Assembly: GCF_053078305.1 (NCBI RefSeq)
Contig: NZ_CP166879.1
Reading direction: 5' to 3' (one strand)
Length of the DNA stretch: 64,000 nucleotides
Below, one piece after another: positions 48,069-49,534 of this stretch; the first letter of the stretch is position 1; each line of letters begins with the position of its first letter. The notes below the pieces were generated by a model. It was not told where the DNA came from. It worked only from the letters and a program-made list of their open reading frames with translations, and did not search any database. Position numbers and translations under genes: made by a program.

Positions 48069-49065
48069 TTATTGTGATGGGGAACGGCTGTTTTTGCGAT
48101 ATTGCGAAGGAGATAATAAAAAACGTTGGTGAAAGTGATGACGCAATAACGCTGAATTGCCAAAACCCGTCAGCTCGGCAATTTTCTCGATGTTAAAAAC
48201 CGAATTTTGCAGATAATCCTGTACTCGTATTAAGCGCTCATTGAGCAGCCAGCGGGCGGGCGTCATGCCAGTTAACGCCTCAAAACGTCTTAAAAAAGTG
48301 CGCGGACTCATATTTACCCGTTCGGCGAGGGAAGACACAGTATGTGTTTGTGCCAGATTCTGCTGCAAAAAGTCGAATAAGGCACCTAACGTCTGGCTTT
48401 CACGCGGTGAGGCCATTGGGCGCGTCAGATTTTGTGGTTGATCCCCCTGGCGATGTGGCTGAATGACCAGTCGCCGGGCGACATTATTAGCAATCTCATG
48501 ACCAAAATCTTTGCGCACGATATGTAAACACAGATCGATCCCCGCGGCGCTTCCGGCGGAGGTCATCACTTGTCCTTCATCCTGATATAACACATTGTCA
48601 CTTACGCTGATTGAAGGGTAACGGTGCTGGAGTTGTTCAGTGTAGCGCCAGTGGGTGGTTGCTTTTCGCTGATGAAGAAGGCCCGCAGCAAGCAGCAAGG
48701 ACAAACACGCCAGAGCATATTGATACCAGGCGAGTACCGCGCTGGTGTGCCTCGCGCAATGACTGGCATAGCATCTCCGGCACTTTGGCATCTATTCCGC
48801 GCCAGCCAGGAATAATAATCATATCGGCGTTGGGCAATAACTCCAGTCCACCATCTGCAACCACGTGGATCCCCCCGGTGGCTTGTAGCGCACCAGGTTC
48901 TACCGCAGCAACAGCAAAACGATACCAATTATCGCCCAGTTCCGGTCGTGGCAGGCCGAATATTTCAACGGCAACGCCAAATTCAAAAGTACATAGCCCG
49001 TCATATGCCAGTGCAATGACCAGCGGACGTTGTAACGTTGTCATCATTTTGCTCATTTCTGGCAT
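48069..49065 (-). pseudogene. AraC-family regulator with N-terminal DJ-1/PfpI-like domain, disrupted by a frameshift
   Basis: N-terminal 142-aa ORF and C-terminal HTH-containing ORF overlap in different frames around 48640-48790. Confidence 0.55.
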
Positions 49066-49138
49066 ATCGAGAGGCGGTCAGTGAAAGGTAGATTAGTTAC
49101 ATTATTGTTAACACAACAAACCAAAAGGACAAAGCAAT

Positions 49139-49534
49139 ATGCGTTATGTCACTGAATTTACCACAGCGAAGCCAGAAGTTGCTGAGGCGCATTTTCTCGC
49201 GCGCTTGAGTGTCGAAACAGATTGCGCCGATGTTCATGACTCTCTGGCTTATATTGGCGATGATTTCGTTTTACTTCATGTGGTTGGACGTGAAGAGGAC
49301 TTCGCGCGTCGGCATATCCCAGGCGCTCTCCATTTACCCCATAAGCAAATGACCGCAGAAAGAATGGCCGAATGGCCCGACGATACGCTATTTGTGGTGT
49401 ATTGCGCGGGGCCACATTGTAACGGTGCAGACCGTGCGGCACTCAAACTGGCTCGACTCGGAAAGCCGGTTAAAATCATGCTCGGCGGGATAACCGGCTG
49501 GGAAGATGAAGGCTATGCCTTTGCCTCAGAATAA
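49139..49534 (+). CDS. Rhodanese-domain protein
   Basis: 131 aa with CxGxxxNG active-site loop (YCAGPHCNGA), divergent from the AraC-like gene. Confidence 0.55.
   Translation: MRYVTEFTTAKPEVAEAHFLARLSVETDCADVHDSLAYIGDDFVLLHVVGREEDFARRHIPGALHLPHKQMTAERMAEWPDDTLFVVYCAGPHCNGADRAALKLARLGKPVKIMLGGITGWEDEGYAFASE

Follow-up and report, generated by a model that had tools for sequence, protein, structure and literature searches.

A 4-nt tandem duplication splits ftrA, an AraC-type regulator gene divergent from a rhodanese-like gene, in a lineage of Escherichia coli

A 4-nt duplication that is inherited within a lineage of Escherichia coli has, very probably, turned the regulator gene ftrA into a null allele and left the divergent rhodanese-like gene intact, most likely without control by FtrA. 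By analogy with characterised GATase1-like AraC-family regulators (GATRs), the DJ-1/PfpI sensor of intact FtrA would respond to a small molecule. Bound to the short intergenic region, its double helix-turn-helix (HTH) would activate the divergent rhodanese gene, and autoregulation by FtrA is probable. Duplication of TGCT after codon 118 shifts the reading frame and yields a 135-aa product. The ftrA gene would thereby be a null allele, in other words a pseudogene, and the rhodanese gene, itself intact, would most likely have been released from FtrA-dependent control. For annotation, this means that the locus belongs in the record as a frameshifted ftrA pseudogene and not as two hypothetical genes.

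The whole stretch of DNA that was analysed, referred to here as the window, is 64,000 nucleotides long and is a segment of the E. coli chromosome. In the window, a prophage and ydfJ are followed further along by dcp-ydeJ-ydeI-dgcZ-mgtT/mgtS, by the divergent pair of ftrA and the rhodanese gene, and by ydeE-eamA-marBAR. The first ~38 kb are probably a lambdoid prophage beside ydfJ. Nearly all large ORFs in this part lie on the plus strand, including those of 1172, 870, 691, and 685 aa, and a sok antitoxin RNA (RF01794, 63.5 bits) is located at 35129-35287 (+), close to the right end of the prophage. The match of E. coli PapRG-06-5 to the window ends leftward at about 38312. In RefSeq genomes with the segment, ftrA is named 'transcriptional regulator FtrA' (323 aa, WP_001310251.1) and its divergent neighbour is named 'rhodanese-like domain-containing protein' (WP_001271101.1). 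Z2164 of E. coli O157:H7 EDL933, which is listed under 'O-island 59', is the same gene in the same position between mgtS and ydeE. The Z2164 locus also has the divergent rhodanese neighbour, as in the window.

The ORF list contains ftrA in two pieces on the minus strand, a 142-aa ORF at 48637-49065 and a 240-aa ORF in a different frame at 48069-48791. The first-pass annotation of this DNA had placed the N-terminal domain and the HTH in different frames with about 150 nt of overlap. The ORFs and the Pfam matches agree with this description, and the overlap is 155 nt (48637-48791). The Pfam profile DJ-1_PfpI (PF01965) is divided between the two ORFs, with profile positions 26-109 in the 142-aa ORF and 106-164 in the 240-aa ORF (28.8 and 27.3 bits, cutoff 26.6), which points to one domain cut in two. 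The C-terminal frame also matches PF12833 (HTH_18, 70.9 bits) and PF00165 (HTH_AraC, 48.7 bits). Against the NCBIfam model of FtrA (NF006902), the N-terminal fragment scores 211 bits (profile 7-123) and the C-terminal fragment scores 331 bits (profile 119-324). The fragments map contiguously onto the model and each of them lies below its cutoff of 425. With the four extra nucleotides removed, the gene encodes WP_001310251.1 and scores 555.1 bits against the same equivalog (profile 7-324 of 327), and the second-best NCBIfam match of this intact FtrA is GbdR with 130 bits. Pfam and the NCBIfam FtrA model thus uphold the initial identification of a DJ-1/PfpI-AraC regulator divergent from a rhodanese gene. 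Because the gene occupies two frames and each fragment is below the cutoff, ftrA of the window is a pseudogene of the FtrA family and not a functional member.

The start of the intact 323-aa orthologue in RefSeq corresponds to window position 49044. An upstream ATG at 49065 (MPE...) is kept in other genera and may be the true ftrA start. Cys110, which is part of the motif SIC(S/A)G, is kept in 7 of 7 aligned full-length proteins and in the N-terminal fragment of the window; it presumably occupies the nucleophile-elbow position of the DJ-1/PfpI fold. The homologous part of the C-terminal frame begins near 48690, and this frame has no native start codon. Features of the locus are listed in Table 1.

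Table 1. Features of the ftrA-rhodanese locus in the window and of the MetE-like gene in Citrobacter, Enterobacter, and Phytobacter (positions of the latter are those of the named contigs)
Feature	Position	Strand	Basis
ftrA pseudogene (transcriptional regulator FtrA: DJ-1/PfpI-like sensor and AraC-type double HTH)	48069..49065	-	ORFs, Pfam, NCBIfam, alignment
ftrA N-terminal fragment, 135 aa from the RefSeq start	48637..49044	-	residues 1-118 native, then 17 out-of-frame, TGA
ftrA C-terminal open frame: rest of DJ-1/PfpI domain, linker, HTH_18	48069..48791	-	ORF list, Pfam, NCBIfam
Internal 165-aa ORF within ftrA	48069..48566	-	ATG 48566-48564, AAGGA 6 nt upstream
Frameshift site	48685..48698	.	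+ strand GCAGCAA GCAGCAA; alignments to intact loci
Conserved intergenic block, 24 nt	49094..49117	.	GTTGTGTTAACAATAATGTAACTA on minus strand; cross-genus comparison
Intact rhodanese-like single-domain gene, 131 aa	49139..49534	+	identical to WP_001271101.1
MetE-like gene	L006 2271-3374; L007 2266-3369; L009 2278-3384	rhodanese strand	PF01717

The nature of the lesion was resolved by an alignment of window positions 48000-49600 to two intact loci, that of E. coli PapRG-06-5 and that of an O157:H7 strain. Comparison with intact orthologues had been proposed as a check in the first pass; ftrA is an intact single frame in both strains and is broken in the window. Four extra bases are the sole difference from PapRG-06-5 across 1601 bases. 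A single-base indel had been suspected initially, but the alignment shows 4 inserted nt, a net +1 shift of the frame. On the coding strand, TGCT has been duplicated in tandem, and the intact CTTGCTGCTGCGGGC has become CTTGCTGCTTGCTGCGGGC in the window. At the frameshift site, intact relatives have GCAGCAGCAA and the duplicated form is GCAGCAAGCAGCAA. The duplication leaves a perfect 7-nt tandem repeat (Table 1), and the exact placement of the four inserted bases is ambiguous within 48687-48694. Unlike intact ftrA, the window gene cannot encode the full-length 323-aa protein since its frame is broken after codon 118 (…SIC110SGVFVLAA, then the shift), eight codons beyond Cys110. Seventeen foreign residues follow and translation ends at the TGA stop at 48637-48639. 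The 135-aa product is without one third of the sensor fold and without the entire DNA-binding domain. Outside the four bases the sequence is identical to an annotated intact ftrA/rhodanese locus, which argues that the split is not a chance pattern of ORFs.

The rhodanese gene is intact, and the exact sequence of its product is found on more than 1000 contigs. The 131-aa protein matches the rhodanese domain PF00581 with 44.2 bits (cutoff 22.2) over residues 52-123. It reaches no NCBIfam equivalog, the best match being rhodanese_LYCAU with 26 bits (cutoff 115). By inspection, a Cys-containing loop, VVYCAGPHCNGA, is at the position expected for the active-site loop. Divergent pairing of ftrA with a rhodanese gene is kept in every relative examined, across at least four genera and at protein identities from 92% to 67%. 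Citrobacter, Enterobacter, and Phytobacter have the two genes head to head, with an FtrA that is 67% identical. The same arrangement is found in a 72%-identical relative (by alignment) and on an Escherichia-like contig whose FtrA is 92% identical, and the rhodanese gene in this whole set encodes 131-137 aa. Conservation is poor in the short intergenic region, save for a 24-nt block that is common to Escherichia, Citrobacter, Enterobacter, and Phytobacter (Table 1). Within this block, the palindrome TGTTAACA is found. The block is a candidate for an operator or core-promoter element common to ftrA and the rhodanese gene, and it might be a core promoter element rather than an FtrA operator. A scan of 48900-49300 for sigma-70 promoters and terminators gave no sites.

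The first-pass annotation had named the rhodanese gene as the likely regulated target. The conserved divergent pair and the 24-nt block lend this claim indirect support that falls short of proof, and the rhodanese gene is a probable target of FtrA; we infer that FtrA would act on it as an activator. The 135-aa product has no HTH, and from this we infer that FtrA-dependent control of the rhodanese gene has most likely been lost in the window. Literature searches found nothing on FtrA function and no experimental work on the 131-aa rhodanese protein. In a microarray table of O157:H7 EDL933, Z2164 is ~6-fold RpoS-dependent (PMC2907692), which shows expression of the intact gene. A MetE-like gene of 367-368 aa (PF01717, Meth_synt_2) lies 3' of the rhodanese gene, on the same strand, in Citrobacter, Enterobacter, and Phytobacter. 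The next genes in the first two of these genera encode an ABC-transporter binding protein and a permease. In E. coli, the rhodanese gene stands alone, without the MetE-like gene and with 40 nt to ydeE. The MetE-like neighbour in other genera hints at a role of the FtrA regulon in metabolism related to sulfur or methionine.

Some 93% of E. coli genomes lack the ftrA-rhodanese pair: among 5426 complete genomes of the species, only 380 contain at least 80% of the 1.6-kb segment. Both genes are cleanly absent from K-12, where ~8 nt of the ftrA 3' end remain beside the ydeE terminus. Since ftrA adjoins mgtS in Citrobacter, Phytobacter, and the 72%-identical relative as well, the segment looks like an ancestral one that most E. 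coli have deleted, rather than a gained island. Other truncated FtrA products are also on record. One of these (P0018, from NCBI O157 genomes) ends at residue 204, and five more (P0002 and P0005-P0008) are FtrA with different foreign C-terminal tails. Some of the truncated products that are found on a single contig may be assembly artefacts. The rarity of the locus in E. coli together with several truncated alleles fits a dispensable, decaying locus under relaxed selection. The window allele adds a case to the reductive evolution seen at this spot, where E. coli has lost the MetE-like gene, most genomes lack the pair, and truncations of various kinds occur in the rest. Natural ftrA null alleles of this kind could be used as ready-made mutants to learn what FtrA controls.

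The split gene would not be a null allele if it were partly functional. A 165-aa AraC-type protein that starts at ATG 48566, or is made by re-initiation at this codon ~70 nt beyond the premature stop, would then act on the rhodanese promoter without ligand control. The 165-aa ORF and a Shine-Dalgarno-like AAGGA exist in the sequence. Gene callers report this ORF in L004 (Logan, SRR31847536) and L005 (GCA_018683035.1), both of which contain the exact 100-nt junction of the window. It scores 248 bits against NF006902 over profile positions 163-324 and includes the complete HTH_18. Isolated DNA-binding domains of some AraC-family activators stay active, and MarA and SoxS are natural stand-alone cases. 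However, the same ATG and AAGGA are found in all intact alleles, which argues against an adaptation to the split. The 165-aa protein is predicted from sequence, and the torn DJ-1 piece that it carries may destabilise the fragment. Relaxed selection also fits better with a locus that most E. coli have lost and that has other truncating alleles. We consider such rewiring unlikely. A shade less likely still is the claim that gene fission has uncoupled the sensor from its output, so that the rhodanese promoter is locked on or occupied in this lineage.

The preferred reading, an inherited null allele, requires that the frameshift is not a product of sequencing. The first-pass annotation had left the choice between pseudogenisation and sequencing error; the first of these stands, and the second is very unlikely. 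In a protein collection, 43 contigs (NCBI, ENA, and Logan) carry the exact 135-aa truncated product (P0001), which is also indexed in 78 blocks of an assembly collection. Exact look-up of other starts of the N-terminal fragment and of the 240-aa ORF gave no entries; the form on record is the one of 135 aa that begins at the RefSeq start. L005 differs from the window at 3 positions in 6.4 kb. L004 is 98.5% identical to the window; of the 99 positions at which it differs, all except two are in eamA/marB. These differences elsewhere mark L004 and L005 as strains distinct from that of the window, with a common allele. The exact truncated product on 43 contigs and the identical junction in two other strains argue for inheritance and against sequencing error. 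On this evidence, the frameshift is a genuine mutation of recent date that one E. coli lineage has inherited.

The ftrA-rhodanese haplotype is 100% identical among the window, L004, and L005, and the match to L004 includes ydeE. This identity in all three carriers indicates one mutational event, which would have taken place on a PapRG-like haplotype and would have been followed by recombination of the flank in one carrier. No further decay has accumulated in ftrA beyond the insertion. The 98.5% identity of L004 had raised the question of a recurrent, independent 4-nt duplication; this was rejected on account of the 100% identical ftrA-rhodanese-ydeE haplotype. As a lineage marker, the duplication cleanly identifies the E. 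coli clone in which it occurs.

That the frameshift is nevertheless a sequencing or assembly artefact, and that the true genome has an intact ftrA, is highly improbable. In its favour, the insertion is in no complete RefSeq genome of E. coli. A 100-nt junction query matched 322 complete E. coli genomes, all of them with 96.0% identity and none with the insertion, and an exact-pattern scan of GTDB species representatives for a 45-nt junction gave 0 matches. The lineage carrying the frameshift is without a complete RefSeq genome. Against an artefact stands the occurrence of the identical allele in independent assemblies, which differ in strain and source. Moreover, 4 nt duplicated in tandem outside a homopolymer are, to our knowledge, no usual type of systematic sequencing error. 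Over 21.7 kb, the window has 98 substitutions relative to PapRG-06-5, its nearest complete genome, and the only coding indels are the ftrA insertion and a homopolymer in mgtT. With just one other coding indel in this span, the assembly is not indel-prone.

The least probable reading is a compensated or reversible frameshift, by programmed ribosomal +1 frameshifting or by slipped-strand phase variation, and both were rejected: the lesion does lie in a (TGC)n-like microrepeat with a perfect 7-nt tandem repeat from which slippage could remove the duplication, but the frame is single in all 322 matching complete genomes as well as in every other genus examined, no known +1 motif was seen by inspection of the 155-nt overlap, and the site has two repeat units only and one invariant length in all 322 genomes, unlike phase-variable tracts.

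Further variation was observed beside the locus. The mgtT gene (window 47771-47866, minus strand) is also frameshifted, at a T-run at 47781-47790 (+). On the coding strand, this homopolymer is A10 in the window and A8 in K-12 and O157:H7, which have an intact 34-aa MgtT. It is A9 in PapRG-06-5, where a RefSeq note reads 'frameshifted', and A9 in L004 as judged from a one-base alignment gap. The predicted MgtT of the window has 31 aa and an altered C-terminus. With its position downstream of dgcZ, the run resembles the T-tail of a terminator hairpin, and its length accordingly seems free to vary from strain to strain. STnc560, an Hfq-binding sRNA in Rfam (RF01407), matches 47657-47872 (+) with 276 bits; it is located 3' of dgcZ, in antisense orientation to mgtT and to the mgtS 3' end. 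MgrR has no match at the gathering score of Rfam anywhere in the window.

On the other side of the pair, 49575-52100 was compared with K-12, to which ydeE is 92.5%, eamA 88.2%, and marB 89.3% identical. The same three genes are 96-100% identical to those of O157:H7 and PapRG-06-5, and these are unusually deep haplotypes. For ydeI-dgcZ, in contrast, the identity to K-12 is 98.8%. The presence of the ftrA-rhodanese pair appears to be linked to the non-K-12 haplotype. L004 has the ftrA frameshift and ydeE as in the window and a different eamA and marB (92% and 88%); this switch places a recombination breakpoint near 50.9 kb. On the metagenome contig with the 92%-identical FtrA (L012), ydeE is called as two ORFs of 155 and 239 aa (2307-3493), which is either a further frameshift in the neighbourhood or an assembly error.

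Among known regulators, FtrA resembles the GATRs, of which CdhR and GbdR of P. aeruginosa are examples. GATRs have a DJ-1/PfpI or GATase1-like N-terminal domain followed by an AraC double HTH, as does FtrA. The target operon of CdhR is divergent from the gene of this regulator, which activates transcription and binds to repeats between the two (PMC5806209). The genes of FtrA and CdhR are alike in being divergent from their targets, where the target is presumed for ftrA and documented for CdhR (PMC5806209). The score of FtrA against GbdR, 130 bits, is far under the GbdR model cutoff of 480, and FtrA therefore belongs to a different subfamily. The neighbour of ftrA is a rhodanese-domain gene and not a quaternary-amine catabolic operon. 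The CdhR/GbdR half-site is GGTCGC or GCCGC with a 15-bp spacer (PMC5806209), and it was not seen in the conserved block at 49094-49117. As for the allele itself, the window holds an ordinary lineage-specific pseudogene of an annotated, functionally uncharacterised accessory regulator, and no new mechanism. In lineage-specific pseudogenes of accessory E. coli regulators, a small indel disrupts a dispensable gene, one that is gone altogether from other lineages. The ftrA gene of the window has no essential difference from them; here, the indel is a 4-nt tandem duplication that is common to a set of assemblies.
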